DNA of 63,503 nt, from positions 1 through 63,503 of the forward strand of contig JACOVG010000009.1 of the NCBI GenBank assembly GCA_016177405.1. Reading direction: 5' to 3'. Below, one piece after another: positions 4,607 through 37,828 of this stretch. Within the stretch, counting starts at the first letter, position 1. Each line of letters opens with the position of its first letter. The DNA comes from Candidatus Omnitrophota bacterium (GTDB lineage: Bacteria; Omnitrophota; Gorgyraeia; 1-14-0-20-64-10). The notes below the pieces were generated by a model. It was given only the letters and a program-made list of their open reading frames with translations. It was not told the DNA's origin and searched no databases. A program made the position numbers and the translations under genes.

Positions 4607-4620
4607 ATGCCTGACAAATT

Positions 4621-5751: not shown

Positions 5752-5766
5752 TGGGGAGTAATTTCT

Positions 5767-11572: not shown

Positions 11573-11590
11573 TGATTAAATACTGCAGAG

Positions 11591-11744: not shown

Positions 11745-11746
11745 AC

Positions 11747-11914
11747 ATGGCGGAAGGTGGATTCTTAGTCACGTTTGACGCGAAGAAGGCAAAACCCCAA
11801 AGGTGTTACGCGGTGGCGTTTGATTACGATGAGTGGGCTTACAGTGTCAATGATAAGAAAAAGGCCGCGATACCCAAGGGAACTGCAAAGATCACCATTG
11901 AGATTGAGCTGTAG
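11747..11914 (+). CDS. small hypothetical protein (55 aa)
   Basis: ATG at 11747 preceded by GGAGGT 8 nt upstream. The longer ORF-track start 11639 lies inside repeat sequence. No recognisable motif. Confidence 0.3.
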   Translation: MAEGGFLVTFDAKKAKPQRCYAVAFDYDEWAYSVNDKKKAAIPKGTAKITIEIEL

Positions 11915-13750: not shown

Positions 13751-13818
13751 ACGTCATCCTCGCGTAAGCGAGGATCGAACGCCCGTCCAGATTCCCGCTT
13801 TCGCGGGAATGACGACGT
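13751..13818. repeat. REP-like double hairpin (mirror arrangement of the 2098-2150 unit)
   Basis: ACGTCATCCTCGC-gtaa-GCGAGGAT ... ATTCCCGC-tttc-GCGGGAATGACGACGT. Confidence 0.7.
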
Positions 13819-20928: not shown

Positions 20929-21049
20929 CTCCCCCCTCTTTTTGCCTATTGAGTTTCCTAAGGTAACGGTTTAGGTTTCTCATCTTCTTCGGGTGCCAGG
21001 TTTGACACCCACTCGGTTTGCCCTTACACTTGTATCGATTGTGGTTCAT

Positions 21050-21398
21050 TCCCCGGTAGCTCAGTTGGTAGAGCGGGTGACTGTACACGAAGTTAGCAGC
21101 CCCGGCCGGAAACGGCCGGGTGAAACAGCGAGTAAATTCAGGGAACCCCGCCAAGATTTGTGGCGGGCAATCCTGAGCCAAGCCCTGTCTTGTCATCCCC
21201 GCGTAGGCGGGGATCGGAAGTTGGGGAAGGTGCAGAGACTAGACACTCGCCACCTAAAGGTACAGACCGTCATTGCGAGCCCCGCAGGGGCGAAGCAATC
21301 TCGCTTGTGCCCATGGTGAAGGGATAGTCCTACCCCCTCGGTAACGAGGGAAGGTCGTAATCACCATGTCCCAGGTTCGAGTCCTGGCCGGGGAGCCA
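21050..21398 (+). tRNA. tRNA-Asn (anticodon GUU) interrupted by a group I intron in the anticodon loop
   Basis: Exon 1 is 21050-21084 (TCCCCGGTAGCTCAGTTGGTAGAGCGGGTGACTGT). Exon 2 is 21358-21398 (TAATCACCATGTCCCAGGTTCGAGTCCTGGCCGGGGAGCCA). Joined they give a canonical class I tRNA with loop CTGTTAA, close to my recollection of E. coli tRNA-Asn. Confidence 0.85.
21085..21357 (+). ncRNA. group I (IC3-like) self-splicing intron
   Basis: 273 nt. The 5' exon ends in U, which can form a U.G pair with intron GCAG (P1 CUGU/GCAG), and the intron ends in G. Core strings AAATTCAGGGAA, CAATCCTGAGCCAAGC and GGTGCAGAGACTAGAC..CCACCTAAAGG closely resemble my recollection of the Azoarcus tRNA-Ile intron. 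Confidence 0.8.
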
Positions 21399-21475
21399 TC
21401 TTTGAGGGTTGCCGTTTTGAGCGACCCCACGTTCGTCTAACGGGCGTCTTAAGGAACAAGCCAAAACACCAGAAA

Positions 21476-21931
21476 CTAATCGAAACAGAAGTGAACCTGA
21501 GGGTTTTCTTCCCGGATCATTCCTTGAATCACGCGGATAAGCTGTGAGGCGGCTTTGAGGGCGTTCTCCGCTTCCGTGAGGGTTCCAAAGGGGTCGGATT
21601 CGTAGAAGAAGATATTTCTCTTGCGCCGCATCTTTTCGAAGTGCTCCACCAGCGAGGCATAATCTCTCCCTAAATGCCGATGGGTCAGCTCCACGACCGT
21701 CCGGTGCTGGCCTCCGTCGGCGGGCAGGTATCCACTTGAGAAAAGAAGGGCCCGACCGGCCCGAAGCATCGCGTGATAGGCAATGGTCGCGGCCCATTCC
21801 GGATCCTTTGCCAGGAGCATTTGTGCCGTATCCAAGTCCTTCTTTGCCCGGACGATCTGTTTTTCGATTTGCTTGAAATTGACCCGCTGGCGCTTGAGCA
21901 GGCCTTTCTTGAGATATGCTTCAAATGGCAT
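21476..21931 (-). CDS. HEPN-domain toxin-like protein
   Basis: 151 aa, all-helical. Overlaps the MNT gene by 11 nt. Layout and size typical of HEPN partners of minimal nucleotidyltransferases. Confidence 0.6.
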   Translation of the reverse strand: MPFEAYLKKGLLKRQRVNFKQIEKQIVRAKKDLDTAQMLLAKDPEWAATIAYHAMLRAGRALLFSSGYLPADGGQHRTVVELTHRHLGRDYASLVEHFEKMRRKRNIFFYESDPFGTLTEAENALKAASQLIRVIQGMIREENPQVHFCFD

Positions 21932-22487
21932 AGGGGTCCCCTTTCAAGAGGATCTTACTGTCGGTCAGCACCTCCTCCAGGAAGGGGTCGCCTTTGTTTC
22001 GTTTCTGGCGGTATTCGTCTTCGCTGTACAACTTATAGTTAATCTCCCGTTGGAACTTCTTCTCAAGGCGGGCGATTTCCCTGATCAGTCTGTTCTCCAC
22101 GTGGGATTTTCCAACGATCAACAGATCGATGTCAGAATCCTTCCGCTGGCTGCCCTTTGCGAAGGAGCCGTAAATCAAAGCCGTCTTCACCTCGGGGAGC
22201 CGTTTGACCATCTCCCGCAGGACCCCTTCCACGCCGGACGTCTTGGCGACGATCCTTTTGAGTTCAGGGTAAAGAGGGTGGCGGGTATCTGCCTGAAAGA
22301 AGCGGGCGTGGCCCCGGTATTCGCTCTTGAGGAGCCCTTCTTCCACCAAAGCGTTCAGGGTGCGTTGAAAAACCCCGGGTTTTTTGCCCAGAATTCTCCC
22401 CGCCTCTTGCATGTAAAAGGATTTTTTAGGGTTCGTGTAGAACAATCCGAGCAGAAGGAGCCGGTTTGGGCTTAAGAGTTGTTTCAT
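21921..22487 (-). CDS. minimal nucleotidyltransferase (MNT) with N-terminal winged-helix domain
   Basis: IYGSFAKGSQRKDSDIDLLIVG (GSx10-DxD NTase signature). N-terminal wHTH-like FYMQEAGRILGKKPGVFQRTLNALVEEGLL. Start moved to MKQLL (ATG at 22487). Confidence 0.7.
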   Translation of the reverse strand: MKQLLSPNRLLLLGLFYTNPKKSFYMQEAGRILGKKPGVFQRTLNALVEEGLLKSEYRGHARFFQADTRHPLYPELKRIVAKTSGVEGVLREMVKRLPEVKTALIYGSFAKGSQRKDSDIDLLIVGKSHVENRLIREIARLEKKFQREINYKLYSEDEYRQKRNKGDPFLEEVLTDSKILLKGDPYAI

Positions 22488-22515
22488 CGGATCTGCATAC
22501 GATTGTATGCGGATC
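22488..22515. promoter_or_regulatory. 11-bp inverted repeat abutting the MNT start codon (candidate operator)
   Basis: GATCTGCATAC-gatt-GTATGCGGATC, 10 of 11 positions complementary. Confidence 0.3.
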
Positions 22516-22793
22516 ACATAGATTTGCAAGGGAATTGCTCCGCGCTCTTATTCGGGCTGCCGCTGTCTGGCCTTCCGGCGCTGGTCCTTTACCGCCCGCC
22601 TCGCCGCCCCTCTTTTATCCCCGGCCCCAAGGAGGCGCCTCCAGACCAGCCACGATTTTGCGTGGGACGGGCGCACCTGCCGCCGCCCAGGTGCGCCCGG
22701 AACACGCGACAGGCTCGCTCCAAGTCCACCTTTTCTCGGGGAGAAAAGGAGAACTCGGCGGTCTGAAGTTTTGTTACAATTAATGCAACCCCG

Positions 22794-22967
22794 ATGAAGA
22801 CAAACACGCAATTTCTGACGCCAAACGAACTTTCCCTCATCCTTAAGCTGCATCCCTTACCGTCACCCATCTTGCCCACGAAGGCAAAGCTACGGCGCGC
22901 CGGGAAGCACTTCGGGAGTGTACGCGTCTTGATGTGGAGATTGCGCGCCTGCGCGCGGCTACGGTAA
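22794..22967 (+). CDS. possible 57-aa ORF upstream of the RT (weak HTH-like LTPNELSLILKL)
   Basis: ATG at 22794, TAA at 22965-22967; below the ORF-track cutoff. Coding status is uncertain and it may instead belong to a structured leader RNA. Confidence 0.2.
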   Translation: MKTNTQFLTPNELSLILKLHPLPSPILPTKAKLRRAGKHFGSVRVLMWRLRACARLR

Positions 22968-23046
22968 AGCAGATGGTACGGAAGATCGAAATGAATCTCG
23001 AGATCAAACGCATCGCGGCGGACCTTGTGTCTCTGAAGGGGCGGCT

Positions 23047-24711
23047 ATGACTCGTCTCCCGGAAGGCAGAGAGGACAGCGTGTTGGACGCTACCCAGGAA
23101 GCGAAGGCGCCCGCAACCAAAATCGATCCCCATGAGTTGCCAGTGGCGGGCGCGGAAGCGAAACCTGAAGGGTATGACATGGTCAGAAGCCGCCGACCTA
23201 AAAAGGGGAATCCGCCGCAGGAACAATCCATCCTTGATATGGATAGCTCGGAGGCCAGAAAGTTTTTGCTCAAGCCGGAGAGCTACTGCAGTATCGACCT
23301 CCCTCCCTATCTGCGATTCGACCAAGTGCTGTCCAACGTATCGAAAGCAATCGGTAACAAGAAGCTTTTGGGAATGCAGAGGATTAGTCCCGGGAAATGT
23401 GAGGGGGTCAATTATCCGCTGCTGTCGAACAAAGACGGTCGGTATGCATGGCGACCGCTTCAGTTGATTCATCCTGCGCTCTATGTCTCGCTCGTGAATG
23501 ATGTCACTACGGAGTCCAACTGGGAAGGCATCCGAAAGCGTTTCTCAACCTTTCAGGCGCTCGACAAAATTCGGTGCCTAAGCATCCCCGTGCGATCTCG
23601 GACGGGTCGCAAGGACCAGGCTACACGAATTCGGCACTGGTGGCAGGGCATCGAACAGGGCTCGGTCGAGTTGGCACTCGATTACGCGTATGTTTTGCAC
23701 GCCGACATCACAGATTGTTATGCTGCAATCTACACGCATTCGATCGCGTGGGCTCTCCACGGGAAACCCTTGGCGAAGGAAAGAAGGCCCGAGGATGACT
23801 CATTGATCGGTAATGTGATCGACCGACACATCCAGAACATGCGGTACGGTCAGACCAACGGGATTCCTCAAGGATCTGTTTTGATGGATCTTATCGCAGA
23901 GATGGTTCTAGGATACGCGGACTTGGAGCTGAGTAGCCGGCTCAAGAAGGACGGGATCGGTGATTACCAGATTCTTCGCTATCGCGACGACTACCGCATC
24001 TTTGCCAATAATCCTCGGCTTGGCGAAGCCATATTGAAGGCCTTGACTGAGGTGTTAATCGGCCCTGGGCTTAAGCTCAATACCGCGAAGACCACAAGTC
24101 ACGAATCGGTGGTGAGCAGTTCCTTGAAGCCGGATAAGGTCGCGTGGTTAAGGAGCAAACAAGATAACCGGGATCTACAGAAATACTTGCTCTTGATTCA
24201 CGCTCATGGACTGGACTATCCGAATTCGGGCAGTTTGGTCGTCGCGTTAACTCACTTCTACGAATGCCTTAGCAAAGCCAAGACCATTAAGAATCCGCGG
24301 TCGCTGATAAGCATTGCAGTGGACATTGCCTACCGCAGTCCGCGAATATTTCCCGTCTGTGCGGCCATCACTAGTAAGGTTTTAAGCACGCTGGAAAGCG
24401 ATGCAGAGAAAGTCGATCTAATTAGGAGGATTCATAAAAAGCTATCGCAGATGCCCAATACTGGCCACATGGAGATATGGCTCCAGCGGATCAGCCATCC
24501 GTACGATAGGGGAATTGCCCTAGAGGAAAGCCTATGCCAACTCGTCAATGGTAAGGAGGATGTGCGGCTTTGGAATAATGAGTGGATATCCGCTAAACAA
24601 TTACTAGCCGCTCTCAATCCCAAGACTATCGTGGATATGCGGAAGCTGAAGTCACTAAAACCGGTTGTACCGCCTGCGGAGATTAAACTGTTTTCCTATG
24701 AGAGGTACTGA
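23047..24711 (+). CDS. reverse transcriptase, Abi/UG (defence-associated) type with helical C-terminal extension
   Basis: 554 aa. HADITDCYAAIYTHSIAWAL (motif A region), GIPQGSVLMDLIAEMVL (motif B), ILRYRDDYRIF (YxDD box at 23980-23991). No endonuclease or maturase signatures seen. Confidence 0.8.
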   Translation: MTRLPEGREDSVLDATQEAKAPATKIDPHELPVAGAEAKPEGYDMVRSRRPKKGNPPQEQSILDMDSSEARKFLLKPESYCSIDLPPYLRFDQVLSNVSKAIGNKKLLGMQRISPGKCEGVNYPLLSNKDGRYAWRPLQLIHPALYVSLVNDVTTESNWEGIRKRFSTFQALDKIRCLSIPVRSRTGRKDQATRIRHWWQGIEQGSVELALDYAYVLHADITDCYAAIYTHSIAWALHGKPLAKERRPEDDSLIGNVIDRHIQNMRYGQTNGIPQGSVLMDLIAEMVLGYADLELSSRLKKDGIGDYQILRYRDDYRIFANNPRLGEAILKALTEVLIGPGLKLNTAKTTSHESVVSSSLKPDKVAWLRSKQDNRDLQKYLLLIHAHGLDYPNSGSLVVALTHFYECLSKAKTIKNPRSLISIAVDIAYRSPRIFPVCAAITSKVLSTLESDAEKVDLIRRIHKKLSQMPNTGHMEIWLQRISHPYDRGIALEESLCQLVNGKEDVRLWNNEWISAKQLLAALNPKTIVDMRKLKSLKPVVPPAEIKLFSYERY

Positions 24712-24725
24712 TGAGGGTGAGGGGA

Positions 24726-24795
24726 GGAGGCGTTACTGTGGGTGCCAGGCAGGGATCGGCAGCATGGCGCTGATAATAACGCCTCCAGTTTTAGG
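24726..24795. repeat. B-type palindromic element B1
   Basis: GGAGGCGTTACTG ... ATAACGCCTCC followed by AGTTTTAGG. Same architecture as 34199-34269. Confidence 0.65.
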
Positions 24796-24835
24796 TCCAG
24801 TTTCGATGACGTCCACGAAATAGAACCGTCCCATA

Positions 24836-25494
24836 TTGCATATGAGCCTGTTCAAGTCAAGACAACGTGTAGCAGACCACGGGGAAGTGTTCACACCCCC
24901 GTGGATGGTCGAAGCGATGCTCGATCTCGTCAAAGGCGAGACCGAGCGAATTGACTCCCGCTTTTTGGAACCGGCGTGCGGGAGTGGGAATTTCCTTGTT
25001 CAGGTCCTGAAGCGCAAGCTCGCCGCAGTCGAGCTCAAGTTCGGGAAGTCCGACTTTGAAAAGCGGCACTACGCCCTTCTCGCTCTGATGTGCACTTACG
25101 GGATTGAGCTTTTGGCGGACAACATCGCCGAGTGCCGCGCGAATATGCTGGAGATCCTTGCCGAGTACCTGAATCTCGAAGAGTCGGGCGATCTGTATCG
25201 AGCGGCTTTCTATGTGCTGTCGCAGAACCTTGTCCACGGTGACGCCTTAACGATGCGCACCTGTGCTGGCCAGGCGATCACCTTCGCCGAATGGGGTTAC
25301 CTCGGTAAGGGGAAGTTCCAGCGACGTGATTTTCGCTTGGATGCCCTCACTCAAATGTCGGCCTTAAGTGAGCCGGGCACGCTCTTCGCGCATCTGGGCA
25401 AGCACGAGATTTTCACGCCGGATAAAAACTATCCGCCAATGACGGTGAGTGACCTTGCTAGCGCGGCAGTCAGTGATGTCCCGAGGGAATCCGT

Positions 25495-25498
<4 letters not shown>
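24836..25498 (+). CDS. methyltransferase-like protein A: intact SAM-binding motif I, no catalytic (D/N)PPY
   Basis: HGEVFTPPWMVEAMLDL and FLEPACGSGNFL (24968-24988). 220 aa with no NPPY/DPPY anywhere. GTGA overlap with the next ORF. Confidence 0.65.
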
Positions 25499-27085
<1,587 letters not shown>

Positions 27086-27102
<17 letters not shown>

Positions 27103-29635
27103 GCCTACAATCGAGGAAATCCTTGCGCCTAAGCCAACAGCTCGGCCGCGCATCTATTCTTATTCTATTGAAGATAAGGCGCACAAGGGTCTCCTGAAGA
27201 TAGGCCAGACGACGCGCGATGTGAAACGCCGCATCGCCGAACAGGTTAAGACCGCTGCAATCAAGAACTACAAGATCGAACTTGACGAATGTGCTGAGTG
27301 CCATGACGGCTCAATCTTTACCGATTATCAAGTGCGCGCGACTCTCATAAAAAAGGGTTTTGTGAAGAAGGAGTTGGAATGGATGCGGTGTGCGGTCGCT
27401 GATGTGCAGACCGTAGTTACCGAGCTTCGTACTGGCCAGCAGCTTACCGGAACGCATCACGAGACGTTCCCCATGCGAGCGGAACAAGCCGAGGCTGTGA
27501 ACAAGACGCACGCTTATTTTCATTCGATCTGGAAGGAGGATATGAACGCCGCTCCTCGCTTCCTCTGGAATGCGAAGATGCGCTTCGGCAAGACCTTTAC
27601 AACCTACCAGTTAGCCAAAAAGCTCGGCGCCAAGCGTGTGCTTGTGGTGACTTTCAAGCCCGCCGTGGAGGATGCGTGGCAGACCGATCTTGAGACCCAT
27701 ATGGATTTCGACGGCTGGCAATACCTCTCTCGCCACTCCGAGAGGGATCCCACCAAGATTGACCGCAAGAAGCCGGTGGTCTATTTCGGTTCTTTTCAGG
27801 ACCTCCTCGGCCGTGATAAGGCGGGGAACATCAAGCCTAAGAACGAATGGGTCCACAAGGTAAAGTGGGATCTTGTGGTCTTTGACGAATACCACTTCGG
27901 CGCATGGCGGGAGACTGCGAAAGAACTCTTCGAAGGGGAGGAAGAGGCGGTCGCCAAGAAGGAGACCGGGCTCGAATACGCAGCCAGCCTGGAAGAGGTG
28001 AACGAAGACCTGGGCGTGCTTTCGGAGAAGGAGGCAGAGTTCCTTCCCATTACGACCAGGGCGTATCTCTACCTGTCTGGTACGCCGTTCAAGGCGCTGG
28101 CTACGGGCGAGTTCATCGAGGAGCAAATCTTCAACTGGACGTATACCGACGAACAGCGCGCCAAGGAAGAGTTCGCCTCCAGGAACCCTGGCAAATGGAA
28201 CCCCTACGGCGCGCTACCGCAGATGCGACTGCTGACCTATCAAATGCCGGACGAGCTCCTAGCGATTGCGAATGCGGGGGAGTTCGATGAGTTCGACCTC
28301 AAGGAGTTCTTCGCGGCCTCCGGCAGAGGCAAGAACGCGCAGTTCAAGCACGAGGGCGATGTGCAAAAGTGGTTGGACATCATCAGAGGCTCGTACACAC
28401 AACAAGCGGTCGAGAGCCTCAAGACCGGAACACGACCGCCGTTTCCATACTCGGACGTCCGCCTACTGCCGTACCTTCAACACTCATTCTGGTTCTTGCC
28501 AGACGTTGCCGCTTGTCACGCGATGGCGAAACTACTGGCTGAAAAACACAACACCTTCTGGCACGACTATAAGGTTGTTGTAGCGGCCGGCGCATTAGCG
28601 GGCATCGGGGTCGATGCGCTGCCGCCCGTGCGTTCAGCTATTGGAAGCGGATTTGAGACAAAGACGATAACGCTTTCGTGCGGTAAGCTCACGACCGGTG
28701 TGACCGTACCTCAGTGGTCCTCGATCTTGATGCTTCGCAACCTAAAGTCGCCTGAAACTTATTTCCAGGCTGCATTCCGGGTGCAGTCACCGTGGTCCAT
28801 CAAGAATCCCAACGGCGACAACCCAAATGAAGATGAGATCCTTAAGCCCGTCTGCTTCGTATTCGACTTTGCGCCTACCCGTGCGTTGCGCCAGCTATCC
28901 GAATACGGGATTCGACTTTCACCCGGCGAGTCGAATCCTGAGAACGCCGTCAAGGATCTCGTGTCCTTCCTGCCGGTGCTTGCCTACGACGGTGCCAATA
29001 TGACGCAGATTGATGCAGGCGGCATTCTTGATATCGCGATGGCTGGCACCTCGGCTACCCTCCTAGCTCGAAAATGGGAATCCGCGCTGCTCGTGAATGT
29101 TGATAACGACACCCTGCGCCGCATCTTGGACAATCCCGAAGCAATGGCCGCAGTAGAGCGCATTGAAGGCTGGCGCGCGCTTGGCGACAACATCATCGAG
29201 ACGATCATCAACAAGAGCGATATGGTTAAGGAACTCAAGAAAAAAGCCAAGAACGGCGACCTGACAGCGAAGCAAAAGAAACAGCTCACTGAGGAGGAGA
29301 AGGAATACAAGTCCAGGCGCAAGCGTGTCCAGGAGAAGCTGATCAAGTTCGCCACGCGCATCCCCGCATTCATGTACCTGACCGACTTCCGCGAGAACAC
29401 GCTCGAGGATGTCATCACCAAGCTCGAACCGGACTTGTTTCTCGCCGTCACCGGCCTGACGGTGAAGGATTTTCACTTGCTCGTGCGTCTGAATGTGTTC
29501 AACACGGAACAAATGGACCAGGCTGTCTTCGCCTTCCGCCGTTACGAAGACGCTTCGCTCCGCTACACGGGGATCGACAGTCATGAAGGCTTGACCCACT
29601 ACGGTCTCTATACCACCGTGGTGGCGAGGGAGTAA
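27086..29635 (+). CDS. T5orf172 (GIY-YIG-like) domain fused to SF2 DEAD/DEAH-type helicase; candidate restriction/translocase subunit
   Basis: N-terminal IYSYSIEDKAHKGLLKIGQTTRDVKRRIAEQ. Walker A MRFGKT (27578-27595) and VVFDEYH (DEYH at 27884-27895). Start set at MATTNK (ATG 27086), overlapping MTase B by 17 nt. Confidence 0.7.
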
Positions 29636-29716
29636 GACTGCGGTGATCGCGCTTCGGGGGTAGCATCTGGAGCAAGCAGGCGGCCTCAAAGGATTGAGAG
29701 CGAGTCGTTGGAGCTC

Positions 29717-29787
29717 GTTGGAGTACCATTTCCGGGAGTGCCGGGTCTCTGAGGTGCGCGAAGGAACCTGGCACGTTTGGAAATGGT
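29717..29787. repeat. C-type / D-type repeat junction
   Basis: GTTGGAGTACCATTTCCGGGAGTGCCGGGT (29717-29746) matches 35953-35982 at 28/30. GCGAAGGAACCTGGCACGTTTGGAAATGGT (29758-29787) is repeated perfectly at 30466-30495. Confidence 0.7.
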
Positions 29788-29820
29788 TCCGGGCCGGGTA
29801 ACGCCCAACCGCTAGATCAT

Positions 29821-30390
29821 ATGGCTGTCCTTTCCGGCAAATTTGACGAGGCGTTGCAGTTTGCCTCCAAAGCGCATCGGCAGCAGACGCGCAAAGGAAC
29901 GACAACCCCTTACGTTACGCATTTGATGGCGGTATCGGCGATTGTCGGAGAAAATGGCGGTGATGAAGATCTAATGATCGCCGCTCTTCTTCACGACTCT
30001 ATGGAGGATCAGGGAGTAACCAGGGAGGAAATCGGCAGTCGGTTCGGATCGCGTGTGGCAAGCATGGTTGAGGCTTGCTCGGACTGCACCTCAAAACCGA
30101 AGCCCCCGTGGCGGCAAAGGAAAGAGATGTATCTTGCTCATCTTCGCGCAGCCGGACCGGACGTTCGTCTGATTTCATTGGCGGATAAGCTTCACAACGC
30201 CCGGACGCTGTTGGGCGACCTTCGCGACGTCGGTCCGGAAGTCTGGAAACGGTTCAATGCAGGCCCAGCAGAGACCCTTTGGTATTATCGTTCAGTAATT
30301 GAAGCTCTTCGGCTGGGGTGGAACCACCCGCTGATTCCAGAGTTGGAGCGGATTATCGACGAGATCGACAGTCTGATTAAGATTAAATGA
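29821..30390 (+). CDS. HD-domain RelA/SpoT-type (p)ppGpp hydrolase-like protein (small alarmone hydrolase-like)
   Basis: 189 aa. YVTHLMAVSAIV ... AALLHDSMEDQGVT ... ADKLHNARTL, the layout of SpoT-type HD hydrolase domains without a synthetase domain. Confidence 0.65.
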   Translation: MAVLSGKFDEALQFASKAHRQQTRKGTTTPYVTHLMAVSAIVGENGGDEDLMIAALLHDSMEDQGVTREEIGSRFGSRVASMVEACSDCTSKPKPPWRQRKEMYLAHLRAAGPDVRLISLADKLHNARTLLGDLRDVGPEVWKRFNAGPAETLWYYRSVIEALRLGWNHPLIPELERIIDEIDSLIKIK

Positions 30391-30394
30391 AGAG

Positions 30395-30462
30395 TAACGG
30401 TACCGGGTACGCGGGGGACAGGTAGCAGCGTAACGTGTCCCTCCGGAACCCGGTACGAATAG
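30395..30462. repeat. A-type palindromic element A1
   Basis: TAACGGTACCGGGTACGCGGGGGACAGGTAGCAGCGTAACGTGTCCCTCCGGAACCCGGTACGAATAG. Starts 5 nt after the HD gene stop. About 90 percent identical to A2 and A3. Confidence 0.75.
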
Positions 30463-30618
30463 CGTGCGAAGGAACCTGGCACGTTTGGAAATGGTACCAG
30501 TCCTACCTTGGGCGCGTCCCTGGCGCCCTCTGGCAAAGCGTCGGAAGGGGTAATACCCTTAAAAGAGGGTAAAAGAGGGGGTATTATCAACCTGCCGACC
30601 GACGCCGGATGTGAGGGG

Positions 30619-30624
30619 TATAAT
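30619..30624 (+). promoter_or_regulatory. TATAAT box 6 nt upstream of an ATG (possible leaderless transcript)
   Basis: GGTATAATGTTCGCATG. A similar arrangement, GTTATAATCTAGTTGAATG, occurs at 36126-36142. Confidence 0.25.
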
Positions 30625-30630
30625 GTTCGC

Positions 30631-30822
30631 ATGAAGCAGGCAACCTTCAACCGCCCTGCCGGGACCATCTTCCTGCTAATAGCCATACTGCACGTCCTGC
30701 GGATTCTCCTTGGTTGGGAGGCCGTCATCGCCGGCTGGAAGGTCCCCATAGGACTAAGCTGGCTGGCGTTCGCGTTAGCCGGTTTCCTCGCCTGCTCAGC
30801 CTTCAGCCGCAAGAATGGCTAG
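30631..30822 (+). CDS. small two-TM membrane protein (63 aa)
   Basis: MKQATFNRPAGTIFLLIAILHVLRILLGW...GLSWLAFALAGFLACSAF. Overlaps the next ORF by 8 nt. The ORF-track start 30508 lies in repeat-derived sequence. Confidence 0.45.
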   Translation: MKQATFNRPAGTIFLLIAILHVLRILLGWEAVIAGWKVPIGLSWLAFALAGFLACSAFSRKNG

Positions 30823-31720
30823 CACACAGAAGGCCTTCGTCGCAGTAACGGACTATGACTGGTACCGTTTCCTCGCCGACTTGCCTAACCTTGATGAGGT
30901 TAATTTCTGGCAGCCGGGCGGATCTACCAGGTTCCAGGCTCTCCAACCAGGAGAACCCTTCCTATTTAAGCTTCACAGCCCGAGGAATTTCATCGTCGGG
31001 GGCGGATTCTTCGTTCAGTGGTCGCGCCTGCCTCTCCAGCTTGCCTGGGAAGTTTTTGAGCAGAAGAATGGAGCGACCTCCCTGGCTGAAATGAGCGATC
31101 GGATCCGTAAATATCGCAAGGGGCAAGGGAACGGAGAGATCGGCTGCATCCTCTTGGGTTCACCGTTCTTCTTGCAGGAGCGAGAATGGATTCGGGTTCC
31201 CTCTGATTGGAAGCCCAACATCGTCACAGGCAAGGGCTACTCTCTTCTGGAAGGTGAAGGCAAGAAGCTTTGGGATGAAGCGAGAGCGCGAATTGCGATA
31301 CGCCTCATTGATACACTGCCTCGCTACGGGAAACCGACGACTATCCTTCCGAGGATCGGGCAGGGAATCTTCCGGGTAATCGTGACTGACGCTTATTCGC
31401 GAAAATGCGCTGTTACCGGCGAGCGTGTATTACCAGCGCTTGAAGCAGCTCACATCAAGCCATATGCAACTGGCGGCCCTCATTCGATCAACAACGGAAT
31501 TTTGCTTCGTTCGGACCTGCACCGCCTCTTCGATAAAGGTTATCTAACCGTTACTCCCGATTATCGTCTGGATGTCAGTAGGCGGATCCGGGAAGAGTTC
31601 CACAATGGACGGGAGTACTACGGTTTCAAAGGTCACGCGCTACTGCTTCCTCAAAAGACGGCCGAGCAGCCTAGTGCCGACTTCCTGAATTGGCACAATG
31701 AGGAAGTGTTTCTCTCGTGA
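30815..31720 (+). CDS. HNH endonuclease with N-terminal PUA/EVE-like domain (type IV restriction-like)
   Basis: GQGIFRVIVTDAYSRKCAVTG...LEAAHIKPY...NNGILLRSDLHRLFDKGYLTV (HNH_2-type signature). N-terminal FVAVTDYDWYRFL...PGEPFLFKL beta-barrel-like region. Confidence 0.65.
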   Translation: MASTQKAFVAVTDYDWYRFLADLPNLDEVNFWQPGGSTRFQALQPGEPFLFKLHSPRNFIVGGGFFVQWSRLPLQLAWEVFEQKNGATSLAEMSDRIRKYRKGQGNGEIGCILLGSPFFLQEREWIRVPSDWKPNIVTGKGYSLLEGEGKKLWDEARARIAIRLIDTLPRYGKPTTILPRIGQGIFRVIVTDAYSRKCAVTGERVLPALEAAHIKPYATGGPHSINNGILLRSDLHRLFDKGYLTVTPDYRLDVSRRIREEFHNGREYYGFKGHALLLPQKTAEQPSADFLNWHNEEVFLS

Positions 31721-31850
31721 CAAAGTCATCCCCGTAAGAATATGAACTGTCCCGGAATGAAGCGTCCCTTAACACGCCACTGCTCCCCAAAAACCGGGCC
31801 AGTTGCTATGAGAGTCTCCGGGTGATAGAAGCGATGGGAGGAGGGTTACG

Positions 31851-32366
31851 ATGAGCCGGCTCAAATTGAATGCCAACTCGATTTCTTTGGCAGGCGAGTT
31901 CGCGGTGCTTTCGCAGCTGGTCCTTCGAGGATACGACGCCAACATGACGCTGGGCCATACAAAGGGAGTCGATATTCTGGTTTCCAACCCCAAGACCAAG
32001 CGCATGTACCAGTTAGAGGTTAAAGCGGGCATCAAAAACATCCACCAAAAGCCCAGAACGTCCAAATTGTTCGGGAAATTTGTGGCTGGGTGGATCATGA
32101 GATCAAAACACGAGCGCATTCAAACTCCAACCCTGTTCTATTGCTTTGTCAGCATTCACAAGAAAACCAACGCTTTTCGTTTTTTCATCGTCCCGAGCCG
32201 CCTGGTTGCCAGGTACGTGAAAACGCAGCACCGTCGTTGGCTGAACGCCAGTCCGAAACATCACAATAGCGATATGCGACAGTTCCGTATCGGACTGCCA
32301 GGGGGGAAATATCCCATCCCGACTCCGACAACTAAGTATGAAGACAACTGGAATTTCATGCGCTGA
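31851..32366 (+). CDS. PD-(D/E)xK nuclease-fold protein (DUF4365/Hjc-like)
   Basis: AGEFAVLSQLVLRGYDANMTLGHTKGVDILV...YQLEVKA (D...ExK arrangement). GGAGGAGGG RBS upstream. Confidence 0.45.
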   Translation: MSRLKLNANSISLAGEFAVLSQLVLRGYDANMTLGHTKGVDILVSNPKTKRMYQLEVKAGIKNIHQKPRTSKLFGKFVAGWIMRSKHERIQTPTLFYCFVSIHKKTNAFRFFIVPSRLVARYVKTQHRRWLNASPKHHNSDMRQFRIGLPGGKYPIPTPTTKYEDNWNFMR

Positions 32367-32380
32367 GCTGAGCGTCAAAG

Positions 32381-33046
32381 ATGGATATGCTGGATAGCAT
32401 AAAAGAACGCGAGAAACTGCAGGATACATTGGAGCGTAGCAGCGAGCAGACCAAGACGACCAACGAGATGCTGGCCGCCACGCGGCTGATCTCGGAAAAG
32501 TTCTACTATCAGGCGGCCCTGCTCTCTGGCGGAACCATCGTACTTAGCGTGACGTTCTTGGGTTACTTGGAAACTTCCGGTCAACCTGTCCTTTGGTTGC
32601 CGCTTCTGATGCTTTCCTGGATGTCATTGCTGGCGGCATTCCTGGGTGCCTTGTACCGCAATCATCATTGGATGCGGCAGACGCATTTTCATGCGATGAG
32701 CGCTGCTCTCGAGCACAAGAAAGCGACAGCAGACCAAATGCTAAAGGTTGTGTCTGCGGACCCGGCAGCCTTCGTGAATCTTCGAACACCGGAAGAGCTC
32801 AAGGAATTTCGAGACAGGCAGGCGGACAAAATCGGGAAGATTGAGAAGAATGAACCTTGGTACTCCGCGCGAGCAAAGAGAGCCGAGTTGTTGACGCAAG
32901 TCTGCGAATGGGCCACACACCTGGGGCTGACTGTCGGGTTGATTCTTTTATTGGTGTTTGCAGGGATCAACGTTTGGCTGAACATAGGGTCAGGTCTTGC
33001 AATGATACATGCGCCTAACGGTACCGGGTACGCGGGGGACAGGTAA
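32381..33046 (+). CDS. membrane protein: coiled N-terminus, TM hairpin, long helix, C-terminal TM (SLATT-like topology)
   Basis: Hydrophobic stretches GGTIVLSVTFLGYL, LWLPLLMLSWMSLLAAFLGAL and GLTVGLILLLVFAGINVWL. Begins 14 nt after the previous stop. Last 10 codons run into repeat A2. Confidence 0.4.
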   Translation: MDMLDSIKEREKLQDTLERSSEQTKTTNEMLAATRLISEKFYYQAALLSGGTIVLSVTFLGYLETSGQPVLWLPLLMLSWMSLLAAFLGALYRNHHWMRQTHFHAMSAALEHKKATADQMLKVVSADPAAFVNLRTPEELKEFRDRQADKIGKIEKNEPWYSARAKRAELLTQVCEWATHLGLTVGLILLLVFAGINVWLNIGSGLAMIHAPNGTGYAGDR

Positions 33047-33083
33047 CGGCGTGCCGGGTCCCTCCGGAACCCGGTACGAATAG
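33016..33083. repeat. A-type palindromic element A2
   Basis: Preceded by GCC, giving GCCTAAC. TAACGGTACCGGGTACGCGGGGGACAGGTAACGGCGTGCCGGGTCCCTCCGGAACCCGGTACGAATAG. Confidence 0.75.
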
Positions 33084-33369
33084 ACCCAAGGTCTGGCGGC
33101 ATCCCCTTCTTAAAGAATTGCTTAAGATTCAGCCCCTTATAGACAATTTTGGCACGATCAATCTTCTCAGGCGTTAAGCCGTATTCCTTGGCTATCCCGA
33201 TATTCAATCGAGTAACCCAAGCGCGGCGGGATGGTTTCTTTTGGGCTTTCCATCAGGCTTTGCATCGTCTAGCATAATATAGCGTAGAAAGCCCACCACC
33301 GAAAACATCTTCCCCCAACCAGGAAGGCGGGGTTCTCAGATACATGGAATTTCGAGATATATTGGGCCA

Positions 33370-34137
33370 ATGAGCAAACTAATCTTTGTCAGTTGCGGGC
33401 AACAGACAACCCTAGAGAAGGAGCTAGCCGAGGCAATTTGCTCGACGGTAGATGCCACGGCAGGTTTTAAGGCATTTTATGCCGATCAGGTACAGAGCTT
33501 AGATGCACTCACGGAGAAGATTTTTGAGGCTCTAAAAATCTGCTCAGGGATGATAAGCGTGTTGCATCCACGCGGCCAGGTTCAATGGCCTGCCGAGACC
33601 CCATGGGGTGTGAGATCATCCGTGTGGATCAATCAGGAGATCGCAATTCTCGCGTTTCGGCAATTCAGTCACAGGGTCAAGGCACCTCTTCTGACTTTCA
33701 TGGCTAAGGTTAAGCTTGAGGGGGCAATGACCGGCCTAATAACAAACCCAATCCCATTAGGCACGAAGAATGAGACTGTTGCAAAGGTAGCGGAGTGGCT
33801 TGCGGCTGGAGGTTTCCCAGACGCTCCGTATCAAGTCTCCGAAGCAATCTTCAGGCAGGGTTGGGAATCTCTTCGGCCAGAAAGTCGTATAGCTATCATG
33901 GCACTTGTTGAGGAAGGCGGAGTTGATGTCAAGGAGCACCGAGTCAGAAGGGCGATGGAAGCGCGACATGGGTTGGAAAAAGTAGGCAACATATTTTTGG
34001 AACTCCGTAGCGATTTGATAAATGCGGACTTAGTAAAATGGAAGCAAGATAGTTATAGCGGAAATGAGATGTCTGTGAATCCGACCTATAGAGATCAGAT
34101 ATTGGAAGCGGTCAACAAGCTGCGAGAGATGCACTGA
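33370..34137 (+). CDS. TIR-like / nucleoside 2-deoxyribosyltransferase-like N-terminal domain protein with helical C-terminal domain
   Basis: LIFVSCGQ first strand, ISVLHP, SSVWINQEIAIL (SxWxxxEI-type motif seen in DUF1863/ThsB-like TIR folds). Assignment by eye only. Confidence 0.35.
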   Translation: MSKLIFVSCGQQTTLEKELAEAICSTVDATAGFKAFYADQVQSLDALTEKIFEALKICSGMISVLHPRGQVQWPAETPWGVRSSVWINQEIAILAFRQFSHRVKAPLLTFMAKVKLEGAMTGLITNPIPLGTKNETVAKVAEWLAAGGFPDAPYQVSEAIFRQGWESLRPESRIAIMALVEEGGVDVKEHRVRRAMEARHGLEKVGNIFLELRSDLINADLVKWKQDSYSGNEMSVNPTYRDQILEAVNKLREMH

Positions 34138-34198
34138 GCGCAGATGAGTAGCATGGATGGAACGAGATTTATACGGAAGCTGATCGCTGAGTGAGAGG

Positions 34199-34269
34199 GG
34201 AGGCGTTACTGGGTGTGCCATGCTGGACGGTGGCTAGGCTGGCACCGGCAGTAACGCCTCCGTTTTATC
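34199..34269. repeat. B-type palindromic element B2
   Basis: GGAGGCGTTACTGGGTGTGCC...GGCACCGGCAGTAACGCCTCC followed by GTTTTATC. Confidence 0.7.
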
Positions 34270-34282
34270 AAGGGAGAATACG

Positions 34283-34474
34283 ATGATCATCCTCACGGGG
34301 TTTTGGCCAAAGGTGTTTCTGGCGGCGATCCTGACGGCGGCGATCGCCAAGGCATTCCGCTGCCCGGTGAGCTTTCCCGCGCTCTTCTTCTTTGCCTCCA
34401 TCGGTTGGGTGGCCCTGTGGATCCTGCTGCTGCTGGCGGAGAGGCGGCTGGAGAAGTGGAGGAGCCGGAAGTAA
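34283..34474 (+). CDS. small two-TM membrane protein (63 aa)
   Basis: GFWPKVFLAAILTAAIAKAF and FFFASIGWVALWILLLLA. AAGGGAG RBS upstream. Confidence 0.4.
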   Translation: MIILTGFWPKVFLAAILTAAIAKAFRCPVSFPALFFFASIGWVALWILLLLAERRLEKWRSRK

Positions 34475-34530
34475 TCTTTTTTATCTATCAGGATATAGTG
34501 TATAATCTATATTGAGGGAGGGAAGCCAAG

Positions 34531-35244
34531 GTGGAGTCGAAGGTCAGAGGGGCGCAGAGGGCTGTTCTGCGGGTCTTTTCCAGGCAGGCGGGCGATTTCG
34601 CGCTGGCCGGAGGGACGGCGCTGGAGCTGTATTACCTGCATCACCGGTTTTCCGCCGATCTGGATTTCTTCTCTCCCAGGTACGGCCTTTCGGAGATTGA
34701 GCGGTTGGTTTCGGCGTTCGAAAAGGGCCTGCGCCAGAAGATGCGGCTGGAGTCTGAATCGGAGGCGGGCGGGAGGGCAAGGGTCCGGGTTTACTCGATG
34801 CCCGTGAAGGGGTCACCGCGGCCGCTTAAGATCGATTTTGTGGAGGACGTCCTGGTGAAGAAGCCGGAGATCCGGAAGGCGGACGGCGTTCGGGTCTACA
34901 GCCCGGAGAATATTTATTTCATGAAGATCGCCGCCATCTCCGGGATCCGGCCTATGGTGGATGAGGTGGGAAGGGAAGTGATGGAGGGGCGGGGTCAGGC
35001 GCGCGACGTCTTCGATGTGCACCTTCTCTCAAAGTGCTTTGAGCCCCTGCGTCTTTTCCTCAAGGCTGTCCCCGCGCCCTGGCAGAAAGGGATCGTCCAT
35101 TGGTACAGGACCTTTTCCCGGCAAGAGTTGAAGCTTGCCCTGATGGATCTGGACATTTATGACGCGAAATTCGATTCGGGAGAGATGATCCGGTACCTGG
35201 AGGATGAAGTGAGGCAATTTGCCAAGGCGGTCCTTGAGGCATGA
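34531..35244 (+). CDS. AbiEii/AbiGii-family nucleotidyltransferase toxin-like protein
   Basis: FALAGGTALELYYLHHRFSADLDFF NTase core. GTG start with GAGGGAGGG RBS. TATAAT at 34501-34506. Confidence 0.65.
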   Translation: MESKVRGAQRAVLRVFSRQAGDFALAGGTALELYYLHHRFSADLDFFSPRYGLSEIERLVSAFEKGLRQKMRLESESEAGGRARVRVYSMPVKGSPRPLKIDFVEDVLVKKPEIRKADGVRVYSPENIYFMKIAAISGIRPMVDEVGREVMEGRGQARDVFDVHLLSKCFEPLRLFLKAVPAPWQKGIVHWYRTFSRQELKLALMDLDIYDAKFDSGEMIRYLEDEVRQFAKAVLEA

Positions 35245-35747
35245 GGATCGCCAGGTACTTCTGGGATTTGAACGGGGCGGCCCTCCGGGAGACGGAGAGG
35301 GTCCTTAAAAATCCCAAGCACCCCCTGTTTGGCCGGCGAATGATTGCTCTTTTATCGCGCTGTGACCAGCCCCGGGAACTCTTCTCGATCCTTCCCAAAA
35401 GGGAGTTTCTGGAGGCCTGGCCCACGATTCGAACGCAGTGGCTGAAGCGAGTCCGGCGCTCGGACTCAAGAGACTGGTGGGAGACCCTCTATGAGGAGAT
35501 GGTCAGGGCGGATCCGCGCGGGCCCATCCCCGTGAGGGGGGAAACCCCTGATTTTTTCCGCCGGCTTGGGGCCACGGTCAAGGAGGCGAGGTTTGAGAAG
35601 GGTTTAAGCCAAAGGCAGTTGGCCCTCCGGGTCGGGATGAGGCAGCCGGATATCTCCAGGATTGAAGAGGGCAAGAAGAATGTCACCCTCTTTACGCTGA
35701 CTCGGCTGTGCAGGGTGCTGGGGATCAAGAAAATCGAGATTGCCTAG
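35241..35747 (+). CDS. XRE-type HTH protein with N-terminal YFWDLN domain (candidate antitoxin/regulator)
   Basis: 4-nt overlap with the NTase gene. C-terminal GLSQRQLALRVGMRQPDISRIEEGKKNVTLFTLTRL. Confidence 0.6.
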   Translation: MRIARYFWDLNGAALRETERVLKNPKHPLFGRRMIALLSRCDQPRELFSILPKREFLEAWPTIRTQWLKRVRRSDSRDWWETLYEEMVRADPRGPIPVRGETPDFFRRLGATVKEARFEKGLSQRQLALRVGMRQPDISRIEEGKKNVTLFTLTRLCRVLGIKKIEIA

Positions 35748-35787
35748 AAAGCAGACAGAATGGGAGGAATCACCGATTTGTGAGCCG

Positions 35788-35855
35788 TAACGGTACCGGG
35801 TACGCGGGGGACAGGTAACAGCGTAATGGGTCCCGCCGGAACCCGGTACGGAAAC
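35788..35855. repeat. A-type palindromic element A3
   Basis: TAACGGTACCGGGTACGCGGGGGACAGGTAACAGCGTAATGGGTCCCGCCGGAACCCGGTACGGAAAC. Confidence 0.75.
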
Positions 35856-35868
35856 GGTCCGAAGGAAC

Positions 35869-36057
35869 ATGGAACGCTTTCCGGAAGGTTTCATGTTTCA
35901 GCTGACGCGGGAAGAACATCAATCTCTAAGGTTCCAATTTGGAACCTTAGAAGTTGGGGTACCGTTTCCGGGAGTGCCGGGTTTAAGGGAGAAAAAGGGG
36001 ACGCTTCATAGGGGGACAGTTCACCAGGCCCCCAAGCGTCCCAAAACCACGTGTTGA
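35869..36057 (+). pseudogene. ORF6N/KilA-N-type DNA-binding domain remnant
   Basis: MERFPEGFMFQLTREEHQSLRFQFGT matches the conserved ERFPEDFMFQLT..E...LRSQ core of ORF6N proteins. The reading frame then degenerates into repeat sequence. Confidence 0.55.
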
Positions 36058-36065
36058 ACAGGCCC

Positions 36066-36090
36066 CAGCGGTAACGCCTCCGGTTTACTC
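36066..36090. repeat. B-type half element B3
   Basis: CAGCGGTAACGCCTCCGGTTTACTC: right arm only. Confidence 0.55.
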
Positions 36091-36139
36091 GCAGATTTTA
36101 TCAACAAATTGTATATACAGAATGTTATAATCTAGTTGA

Positions 36140-36400
36140 ATGAAAGAGATCCGGTGGAATCTACTGAAGAGCGAGAGGATTAAACGTGCCAGGGGCGCTT
36201 CTTTTGAAGAGATCCTCCAAGCTCCTTTGATCGCGGTCAAGAAGCATCCCAAAAAAGAACATCAAAATATCATGCTCTTTGAGCGCAAGGGATACGTTTG
36301 GGTGGTTCCGTATGTTGAGAATGACGACGAGATATTCCTGAAAACCCTATACCCGAGCCGGAGGTACACGAAGATGTACAGAAGGGGCGAATTGAAATGA
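36140..36400 (+). CDS. brnT: BrnT-family (DUF497) toxin
   Basis: 86 aa. RGASFEEILQA...FERKGYVWVVPYVENDDEIFLKTLYPSRRYTKMY, typical BrnT layout. TATAAT at 36126-36131. Confidence 0.7.
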   Translation: MKEIRWNLLKSERIKRARGASFEEILQAPLIAVKKHPKKEHQNIMLFERKGYVWVVPYVENDDEIFLKTLYPSRRYTKMYRRGELK

Positions 36401-36654
36401 GACAGCTCAAATTGACCAGGCAGGAGAGGGCGCTTGAGGGTGCTTTGGTTCGCGGCGAATACCAGGATGTTTCGAAATTGGAGTTTGAGGGAATCGCCCG
36501 GGCAGTCGCCCACAGAAAGAAGGATGCCGTCCTCAACCTCCGCGTGAACAGCCAAGATCTGGAAGATGTGAAGCACAAGGCCAGGAAGCTGGGCGTCAAG
36601 TATCAAGCCTTCTTGTCGGAGCTTATTCACCGCGTTGCCCATAGCGAACTTTGA
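36397..36654 (+). CDS. brnA: BrnA-family antitoxin (RHH/CopG-like C-terminus)
   Basis: 4-nt overlap with brnT. VLNLRVNSQDLEDVKHKARKLGVKYQAFLSELIH. Confidence 0.7.
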   Translation: MRQLKLTRQERALEGALVRGEYQDVSKLEFEGIARAVAHRKKDAVLNLRVNSQDLEDVKHKARKLGVKYQAFLSELIHRVAHSEL

Positions 36655-36677
36655 AGCTTGAGCCTAACGGTACCGTA

Positions 36678-37805
36678 ATGGCAGGGTATACCTGCGTGGA
36701 TAACGCGCAAGACCTCGCCCGTTTAACCCAAAGGCTGCATGCCGCGGCCCGCGTGGGCATGGACACCGAAGCCGACAGCCTGCACCATTACTACGAGAAG
36801 GTCTGCCTGATCCAGCTAAGCTTTTTGGGAGCGAATTATATCGTCGATCCCCTCGGCGGTTTTTCCCTTTCGGAGTTTCTTGAGGTGTTGTCTCAAAAAG
36901 AGATGATCTTCCAGGGCGCGGACTATGACCTCCGCATCTTGAAGAAGTCATTCGGGTTCCGGCCGAAAGCCCCCATCTTCGACACCATGCTGGCCGCCCA
37001 GGTTCTGGGCTATGAAAAGATCGGACTCGCGGCGCTGGTCGAAAGATTCTTCGGAGTTTTCATGTCGAAGGCAGGGCAGAAATCCGACTGGTCCAAGCGG
37101 CCTTTGCCCGCGCGGCTGCTTGCCTATGCCTCGGATGACACAAAATATCTGGAAACGATCGCCGACGCCCTGACGGAAAACCTTCAAAAACTCAACCGAA
37201 TCACCTGGCACCGGGAATGCTGCGAGCGCGTGGTCAAAACCTCCGGGCTTGCCGATAGAAGCGAAGAGAAAGAGGCGTGGCGCGTTAAGGGATCTTCCCT
37301 GTTATCCCCCCGGGAGCTTGTCTTTGTGCGGGAGCTCTGGAAATGGCGGGACGAGGAAGCCCGGAAAAAAGACCGGCCGGCTTTTCATATCTTGAAGAAC
37401 GAGGAACTTATCGAGCTTGCCGGATGGCAGGCGAGGAATCAGAAAAGCCCGCTTCACCAGGGCCCCTCGTTTCTGAAGAGGTTCACCGGAGAAAATCTCG
37501 CGCGGCTTGAAAACGCGGTTCGGTCCGCGAAGAACATCCCCCCGGCGGAATGGCCGCTCCCGAGAGAGAGGACGAGGCGGGCCTATGAGCAGCCCGATCA
37601 GGAGAAGCTGGAGTCGCTGCTGGCCGCCTGCGGAACGCTGGCGAAGAAACTGGAAATCGAACCCTCCTTTCTGGCCTCCCGCGGCGCGTTAACGGCCGTG
37701 GTTCAGCATCGGCCCCGATCCATCGAAAAGGTAATGGAAGTCAGCGGCATGATGCGTTGGCAGGCCGAGTTGATGATGCCCGCGATCCACGGGCTGAATG
37801 GGTAG
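36678..37805 (+). CDS. rnd: ribonuclease D (DEDD 3'-5' exonuclease plus HRDC)
   Basis: VGMDTEADSLHHYYEKVCLIQLS, GADYDLRIL, YASDDTKYL. Start set at ATG 36678; the ORF-track TTG start lies in the A-type half element GCCTAACGGTACCG at 36660-36673. Confidence 0.8.
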   Translation: MAGYTCVDNAQDLARLTQRLHAAARVGMDTEADSLHHYYEKVCLIQLSFLGANYIVDPLGGFSLSEFLEVLSQKEMIFQGADYDLRILKKSFGFRPKAPIFDTMLAAQVLGYEKIGLAALVERFFGVFMSKAGQKSDWSKRPLPARLLAYASDDTKYLETIADALTENLQKLNRITWHRECCERVVKTSGLADRSEEKEAWRVKGSSLLSPRELVFVRELWKWRDEEARKKDRPAFHILKNEELIELAGWQARNQKSPLHQGPSFLKRFTGENLARLENAVRSAKNIPPAEWPLPRERTRRAYEQPDQEKLESLLAACGTLAKKLEIEPSFLASRGALTAVVQHRPRSIEKVMEVSGMMRWQAELMMPAIHGLNG

Positions 37806-37828
37806 GCAGTGACGCCTCCGGTTTATTC
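37806..37828. repeat. B-type half element B4
   Basis: GCAGTGACGCCTCCGGTTTATTC, immediately after the rnd stop. Confidence 0.5.

Follow-up and report, generated by a model that had tools for sequence, protein, structure and literature searches.

An interrupted tRNA-Asn gene

The window, by which we mean the whole 63.5-kb stretch of DNA analyzed here, contains a tRNA-Asn(GUU) gene at positions 21050–21398 in which a 273-nt group I intron separates nucleotides 35 and 36 (Table 1). A group I intron of this length in the anticodon loop of tRNA-Asn(GUU) had been proposed in a first-pass annotation of the same DNA, and two independent programs agree with it. The Rfam group I model (Intron_gpI, RF00028; gathering score 50 bits) matches 21056–21351 over its full length (model positions 1–253 of 253) with 70.1 bits and an E value of 9.8e-16, which is the significant covariance-model match that the annotation had called for, and the tRNA-Asn intron is the single group I match of the Rfam scan in the whole window. 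ARAGORN, when allowed to search for introns in the genomic DNA, returns tRNA-Asn i(36,273), and when the exons are joined it reports a canonical 76-nt cloverleaf of tRNA-Asn(GTT) with a 7-nt anticodon loop, U33 and G73, so that the proposed junction CTGT|TAA does restore the loop, U33 and the anticodon GUU. Neither default ARAGORN nor the Rfam tRNA model reports the gene. The 5′ exon is identical to exon 1 of two related loci, L113 and L075 (L numbers denote loci compared with the window), and the minimum free energy of the intron has a z-score of −5.2 relative to shuffled sequences.

Table 1. Positions of the intron-bearing tRNA-Asn gene, its structural elements and adjoining features in the window
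Feature	Positions	Strand	Description
Promoter-like site	21002..21030	+	TTGACA-17-TACACT, ~20 nt upstream of the tRNA; consensus match only
tRNA-Asn 5′ exon	21050..21084	+	35 nt, nucleotides 1–35, ends C32 U33 G34 U35 (CTGT); reads TCCCCGGTAGCTCAGTTGGTAGAGCGGGTGACTGT
P1	21081..21099	+	exon CUGU (21081–21084) pairs with GCAG (21096–21099); read from sequence
Group I (IC3-like) intron	21085..21357	+	273 nt, starts ACACG, ends GGTCG; no homing-endonuclease ORF
P10 guide half	21092..21095	+	GUUA pairs with 3′ exon UAAU 21358–21361; read from sequence
P2 hairpin	21101..21120	+	8 bp, GAAA tetraloop 21109–21112
P3 5′ strand	21128..21133	+	GCGAGU pairs with ACUCGC 21245–21250
P4 enclosing P5	21138..21176	+	P4 21138–21143/21171–21176; P5 21147–21152/21162–21167
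P6 (GCC/GGU) and P6a	21177..21231	+	hairpin repeat inserted at tip, 21192–21215
P7 5′ strand	21235..21241	+	G(A)GACUA pairs with UAGUCC 21325–21330; guanosine-binding helix, bulged A
P8 (CACC/GGUG)	21251..21318	+	receptor-like CCUAAAG...CAUGG motif; hairpin repeat inserted at 21269–21301
P9 hairpin	21335..21350	+	CCCUCG-GUAA-CGAGGG
omega-G	21357..21357	+	final intron nucleotide
tRNA-Asn 3′ exon	21358..21398	+	41 nt, U36 to G73 plus encoded CCA; TAATCACC...GCCA; full TAATCACCATGTCCCAGGTTCGAGTCCTGGCCGGGGAGCCA
Low-GC stretch of defence-type genes	21400..38300	.	starts right after the tRNA, ~17 kb

The metagenomic source of the sequence, and the repetition of the exons and of the P8 hairpin in the community, could raise the suspicion that assembly or binning stitched a foreign group I intron between two tRNA halves. 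However, contigs that are 100% identical to the window pass through both exon–intron junctions in four independent metagenome runs (over 20990–21298 and 21272–21460, at the depth of the flanks) and therefore exclude an assembly chimera; given that the same arrangement also recurs in 79 independent genomes, we regard such an artefact as scarcely credible. The element is a real, canonical group I intron in tRNA-Asn that, judged from its sequence, is almost certainly functional and would be expected to splice.

Splice sites and conserved fold

A single segment, GUUAGCAG (21092–21099), constitutes the internal guide sequence and serves P1 and P10 side by side. U35 (21084) forms a U·G wobble with G 21096 at the 5′ splice site, so that both hallmarks named in the first-pass annotation, the exon-final U paired as U·G with intron GCAG and the intron-final G, are present in the sequence. 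P1 is invariant in 46/46 homologues, yet the search pattern by which these were collected demanded the CUGU...GCAG pairing, and P1 and P10 are both uninformative for covariation because that pattern fixes them. The equivalent of P10 in L113 is AUUA/UAAU. The omega-G is kept in nearly all of 83 parsed homologues, the sole A belonging to a mis-parsed locus. The splice sites are confirmed by an intron-less allele, L110, which reads GACTGT|TAATCAG and whose alignment gap coincides exactly with the proposed intron borders, ending at 21357.

We assigned the helices with the help of two alignments, that of Rfam and the seed of Williams 2020, and tested them on 46 homologous tRNA-Asn introns aligned with MAFFT; of the P1–P9 fold that the first-pass annotation had wanted drawn, P2–P9 have comparative support across these homologues. 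Standard pairs occupy 86.7% of the structure cells, against 34–47% when the 3′ partners are slid by 1–3 columns, and cells with double changes number 371, against 55–168 with slid partners and 129 ± 10 in shuffles. Compensatory changes among the homologues back P2, P3, P5, P6, P7, P8 and P9. All eight pairs of P2 have changes on both sides, with 96% of cells paired, and covariation is found in four of the six pairs of P3 and three of the four of P8 (46 homologues in each case); the third pair of P6 is C-G in some homologues and U-A in others, and P7 is 98.5% paired, its last pair changing from A-U to U-A in 19 sequences. RNAalifold, with no structure supplied, recovered P1, P2, P3, P4, P5, P8 and P9 with compensatory changes in 26 pairs, including 15–21 double changes per pair in four of the six pairs of P9, and even found the final two base pairs of the anticodon stem of the tRNA. 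A minimum-free-energy fold of the single sequence yields P2, P4, P5 and P9; the pseudoknot of P3 and P7 is beyond the reach of this method, and we therefore relied on the comparative counts. The CCUAAAG...CAUGG motif of P8 departs from what we take to be the canonical 11-nt receptor.

Hairpin repeats in the P6 and P8 loops

The tips of P6 and P8 each carry a hairpin that recurs elsewhere. The P6-tip hairpin (21192–21215) has the form GTCATYCYCGCG-NNN-GCGRGRATC, of which the window holds five copies where 0.01 would be expected; the other four form two inverted pairs between genes (window 2100–2148 and 13753–13813), and the stems of the copies differ from one another by compensatory changes. 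The P8-tip hairpin (21269–21301), of the form GTCATTGCGAG-CCCCGCAGGGG-CGAAGCAATC, is single-copy in the window. At 100% identity it reaches ~6 times the depth of the flanks and genome, with unrelated flanks, in runs X2–X4, and ~13 times in X1. Its flanking motif is also found in P8 of four further loci (L066, L082, L086 and L095). L075 and L036 carry the P6-type hairpin in both P6 and P8, and L113, L109 and L088 have neither hairpin. The inserts look like REP- or MITE-like elements lodged in expendable loops of the ribozyme, and we consider this hairpin-invaded state the only, and mildly, unusual aspect of the intron.

It is conceivable, though in our view doubtful, that the sole tRNA-Asn of the cell depends on a hairpin-colonized ribozyme whose inserts have been co-opted, perhaps to serve as modules in protein binding or folding and so to adjust the supply of tRNA-Asn; if true, small mobile hairpins would here have reshaped a catalytic RNA that the cell cannot do without.

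Kinship with known introns

Both the host tRNA and the insertion site are already catalogued. The survey of Williams (bioRxiv 2020, doi 10.1101/2020.01.27.920355) lists Asn.4Ug, with the seed Pam37.Asn.4Ug, as one of 21 types of bacterial tRNA group I introns, to which number it extends the four classical types (Leu.3Ug, fMet.2Ug, Ile2.5Ug and Arg.5Ug), and places Lys.4Ug, Tyr.4Ug and Asp.4Ug at the same position 4. The suggestion in the first-pass annotation that tRNA-Asn might be a new host is therefore refuted, by this type catalogued in 2020 as well as by the 79 genomes and four viral contigs described below, and the window intron is a further example of it; nor is the split anticodon, also singled out there, exceptional, since the tRNA-Leu(UAA) intron splits nucleotides 34|35 and the Lys, Tyr and Asp types sit at position 4. 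The window intron shares with Asn.4Ug the host tRNA, the site after the fourth nucleotide of the anticodon loop (35|36), the U at position −1 and the omega-G. It differs from the Pam37 seed in having no additional hairpins downstream of P2 or between P7 and P3. Pairwise matches of the window intron are 0.73 to Arg.3Ug, 0.71 to Leu.3Ug, 0.70 to the Azoarcus-type Ile2.5Ug and 0.64 to the Asn seed; in sequence it is nearer to the classical IC3 introns than to the published Asn seed.

The likeness of the core to the IC3 ribozyme of Azoarcus tRNA-Ile, pointed out in the first-pass annotation, holds in an alignment with the Azoarcus-type seed Aol6.Ile2.5Ug, in which 146 of 173 aligned positions are identical. 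The two introns have in common a compact ORF-less core, a GAAA loop on P2, a receptor-type motif in P8 and a GNRA loop on P9, as well as the sequence blocks AAAUUC, GAGCCAAGC, GAAGGUG.AGAGACUAGAC, CACCUAA and GGUGAAGG.AUAGUCC. They differ in host and site (tRNA-Ile2 after nucleotide 36 in Azoarcus), in guide sequence and in length, the window intron having 273 nt against ~205 in Azoarcus because its P5 loop is longer and hairpins are inserted in P6 and P8. The Azoarcus tRNA-Ile(CAU) IC3 intron was reportedly described by Reinhold-Hurek and Shub in 1992. Features of the IC3 subgroup, in a list said to go back to Michel and Westhof in 1990, are a compact core that lacks P5abc and P2.1, GNRA loops on P2 and P9 with partners in P8 and P5, 3-nt J3/4 (AAA) and J6/7 segments, and a sequence related to the introns of Azoarcus and Anabaena. 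In its layout and sequence blocks the window intron agrees with this list, and on these features we call it IC3-like.

The cyanobacterial and plastid tRNA-Leu(UAA) intron (Leu.3Ug) likewise splits the anticodon (34|35) and has 68–71% pairwise matches to the window intron. It is an IC3 intron that in most cases has no ORF and descends vertically within a phylum, and it differs from the window intron in tRNA, site and guide sequence. The Synechocystis tRNA-fMet intron, which encodes the PD-(D/E)XK endonuclease I-Ssp6803I, resembles the Asn family in that members of the latter carry endonuclease ORFs too; in contrast, the window copy has no ORF, and its relative L113 has an HNH ORF in the P1 loop that runs into the ribozyme. 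The "group I introns" of 22–49 nt in cyanobacterial Arg, Gly and Lys tRNAs (Mohanta 2017) were set aside as too short for group I and not in tRNA-Asn.

Distribution among bacterial and viral genomes

One genome per GTDB species was scanned with the pattern GGTAGAGC-N6-CTGT-N(3-20)-TTAGCAGC, which gave 97 genome loci. Seventy-nine of them are tRNA-Asn(GUU) genes interrupted at 35|36 by an intron that ends in G and has the core blocks AGAGACU and AGUCC; the remaining 18 were left unparsed, mostly because the contig ends within the intron. By record title the 79 comprise 25 Omnitrophota, ~17 Clostridia, at least 12 Patescibacteria, Melainabacteria/Cyanobacteria and others, and viral contigs yielded four further intron-bearing tRNA-Asn genes with the same pattern. 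The pattern is strict, and these counts are therefore lower bounds. Fourteen of 18 sampled loci reach the Rfam gathering score. The ribozymes fall into at least three sub-lineages with a common site and guide sequence. The window belongs to the one marked by AGAGACUAGAC, and its nearest loci are L088 (0.91 matches per shorter length), L075 and L036; L075, an Omnitrophota MAG from groundwater, is 79% identical by BLASTN, and the scan of species representatives returned no locus identical to the window copy. Introns of this kind are already widespread in public data; the window example leaves knowledge of group I introns unchanged.

Several matches of the scan proved to be of other kinds. L001 and L006 are uninterrupted tRNA-Asn genes with TTAGCAG in the acceptor stem, L015 (Micrarchaeota) and L054 (Methanosarcinales) are archaeal tRNA-Asn genes with introns of ~21 nt that are not group I, and L040, L042, L063 and L064 are chance matches in coding DNA. 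L089, labelled Woesearchaeota, has a bacterial-type tRNA-Asn group I intron near that of the window and is probably a mis-binned bacterial contig. Ten loci (L010, L012, L028, L057, L061, L068, L071, L087, L090 and L104) come from TPA MAGs titled "uncultured Gammaproteobacteria"; their introns are of sub-types found in Patescibacteria MAGs (L090 resembles L009 and L100, and L087 resembles L079 and L102), and these record titles may therefore be unreliable.

The distribution has a practical consequence for annotation. Standard tRNA finders miss the gene, and ARAGORN often misplaces the intron and calls intron-bearing tRNA-Asn genes Thr or Leu; Omnitrophota, Patescibacteria, Clostridia and some phages would thus seem to lack tRNA-Asn, a seeming absence that a search for group I introns would remedy.

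Relatives with and without the intron

Among the closest metagenome relatives by PEP carboxylase (59–62% identical), L109 and L111 carry the intron, L113 and L108 carry the intron together with an ORF, and L110 has none; from this mixed presence among close relatives we conclude that the intron is polymorphic. The intron-less tRNA-Asn of L110 (8492–8567) lies in the syntenic order tRNA-Arg, tRNA-Ser, PEP carboxylase, tRNA-Asn. One metagenome (Ga0209515) is the source of both L110 and the intron-bearing L109, and the anticodon stems of the two are identical.

The closest ORF-bearing relative is L113 (8485–9008, identical there to L108), the intron of which begins ACACG like that of the window. 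Its P1 loop contains an insertion of ~290 nt with a 156-aa ORF (8508–8978) that has the motif CxxC...HH...CxxCH, matches Pfam HNH with an E value of 5.8e-4 and 20.4 bits, just below the cut-off of 21.4 bits, and stays open through the guide sequence into the catalytic core; the rest of the L113 intron aligns with that of the window except at the two hairpin inserts of the latter. A viral contig (L005, IMGVR_UViG_3300029692_000002) has a 598-nt tRNA-Asn intron with a 184-aa PD-(D/E)XK ORF (PF11645, E 1.4e-19), the Pfam family being that of I-Ssp6803I, and all that is left of an ORF in the 624-nt introns of L008 and L022 is a remnant of 69 aa. The ORFs that overlap 21085–21357 in the window match no Pfam family at E≤0.1, and thus no homing endonuclease, the feature by which mobility was judged. 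Given that relatives have homing-endonuclease genes and the window copy has none, we infer that the latter descends from a mobile family but is itself immobile.

Together these loci form an evolutionary series at a single site, from empty (L110) through ORF-less (window, L109, L088) to endonuclease-bearing and presumably mobile (L113, L005), with hairpin-invaded copies (window, L075, L036) as a further class; work on how introns are gained, lost or degraded could draw on them.

Function and proposed splicing pathway

ARAGORN found no other tRNA-Asn within the 63.5-kb window. In runs X3 and X4 neither exon has a second copy at 100% identity; contigs there are unbroken and the depth of the exons equals that of the flanks, so that no other locus in these samples has the same exon sequences. 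The first-pass annotation had recommended a search for an uninterrupted tRNA-Asn elsewhere in the genome; none appears in the window or at 100% identity in X3 and X4, which leaves room for a diverged copy elsewhere. Similar exons (≥90%) joined without the window intron do occur in the same samples at ~1/5 of the depth of the genome, none of them at 100%, and at 90% likeness other contigs carry different introns at the same site; the intron-less contigs at ≥90% most likely come from other organisms. An intron-less allele of the window genome itself was considered and rejected, because the joints seen at 90% vanish at 100% identity.

The promoter-like site upstream of the gene agrees with the consensus at 10 of 12 positions, where 0.3 such sites would be expected by chance, and a similar TTTACA...TAMACT spacing precedes the syntenic genes of L113, L109 and L110. 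Indexed transcriptome runs gave 5% word matches only, none from the organism of the window.

We hold with considerable confidence that this is a working tRNA-Asn(GUU) gene with an ORF-less, IC3-like group I ribozyme between U35 and U36. The analysis shows what the element is, where its borders lie, that its fold is conserved and covaries, and how widely it occurs; splicing itself, and the dependence of the cell on it, we infer from the anatomy. One could instead regard the intron as a decayed, non-catalytic relic and the gene as a pseudogene, with asparagine decoded by another, uninterrupted tRNA-Asn: the ribozyme bears two foreign hairpins in P6 and P8, there is no homing endonuclease, a second tRNA-Asn could sit outside the 63.5-kb window, and similar intron-less tRNA-Asn contigs occur in the same metagenomes. 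However, all core helices and joining segments are intact and fit the covarying consensus, the insertions are confined to helix tips, where relatives vary too, X3 and X4 hold no second 100%-identical exon copy, and the synteny and the promoter-like site are conserved, and we therefore consider decay to a relic very improbable.

For a working, self-splicing gene, the anatomy and the established chemistry of group I introns predict the following pathway. The gene would give one precursor transcript, in which GUUAGCAG would pair with both exon ends, GCAG with CUGU as P1, the U35·G pair marking the 5′ splice site, and GUUA with UAAU as P10. Free guanosine bound in P7 would attack after U35; the terminal G (21357) would then occupy the guanosine site, and the freed 3′-OH of U35 would attack the 3′ splice site, to give the 76-nt tRNA-Asn and the released intron. 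The fold would probably be braced by the GAAA loop of L2 docking into the receptor-like motif of P8 and by the GUAA loop of L9 on P5, as in Azoarcus; its P6 and P8 tips have acquired the two dispersed hairpin repeats. A point against this pathway is that the nearest relatives, whether ORF-less or ORF-bearing, have neither the 24-nt insertion in P6 nor the 33-nt insertion in P8, and that these insertions could make folding slower or less efficient.

Many organellar group I introns require a protein cofactor. By analogy, the window intron might be removed but not autonomously, with a protein cofactor, a chaperone or special conditions gating the supply of tRNA-Asn, and the peripheral inserts and non-canonical P8 receptor may weaken the tertiary fold. 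We give this little credence: nothing in the window suggests a cofactor, L2 and L9 are GNRA loops whose P5 and P8 partners are conserved, and the closest characterized relatives, bacterial IC3 tRNA introns such as that of Azoarcus, self-splice without protein (PMC13168695).

Gene neighborhood

Upstream of the tRNA-Asn gene lie genes for PEP carboxylase (17456–20269) and a PilZ protein (20350–20928), with ~71% amino-acid identity to those of L075. The order PEP carboxylase, PilZ, tRNA-Asn is kept in L075, L088, L036, L113 and many Omnitrophota loci, and on this ground we regard the host as an Omnitrophota-like bacterium of groundwater.

Downstream of the gene, GC content drops from 64–69% to 51–57% over 21.4–38 kb, and the low-GC stretch encodes HEPN/MNT proteins, a reverse transcriptase (23047–24711), an Eco57I-type methylase, a ResIII helicase, and HD, HNH and AbiEii proteins, in keeping with the first-pass annotation, which had made the tRNA-Asn gene the border of a defence island. 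Of the features expected of an integrative island, an integrase domain is absent from the ORFs scanned in 21400–38300, and a search for repeats of at least 14 nt of the tRNA 3′ end found none; the island label rests on the GC drop and the content of defence genes. A second low-GC stretch (48–52%) lies at window positions 4001–12000, directly after a tRNA-Ser(TGA) gene (4110–4197). Just downstream of the intron-bearing tRNA-Asn of L036, positions 4172–4265 match the Rfam DUF3800-V RNA with 37.7 bits against a cut-off of 37.4 bits.
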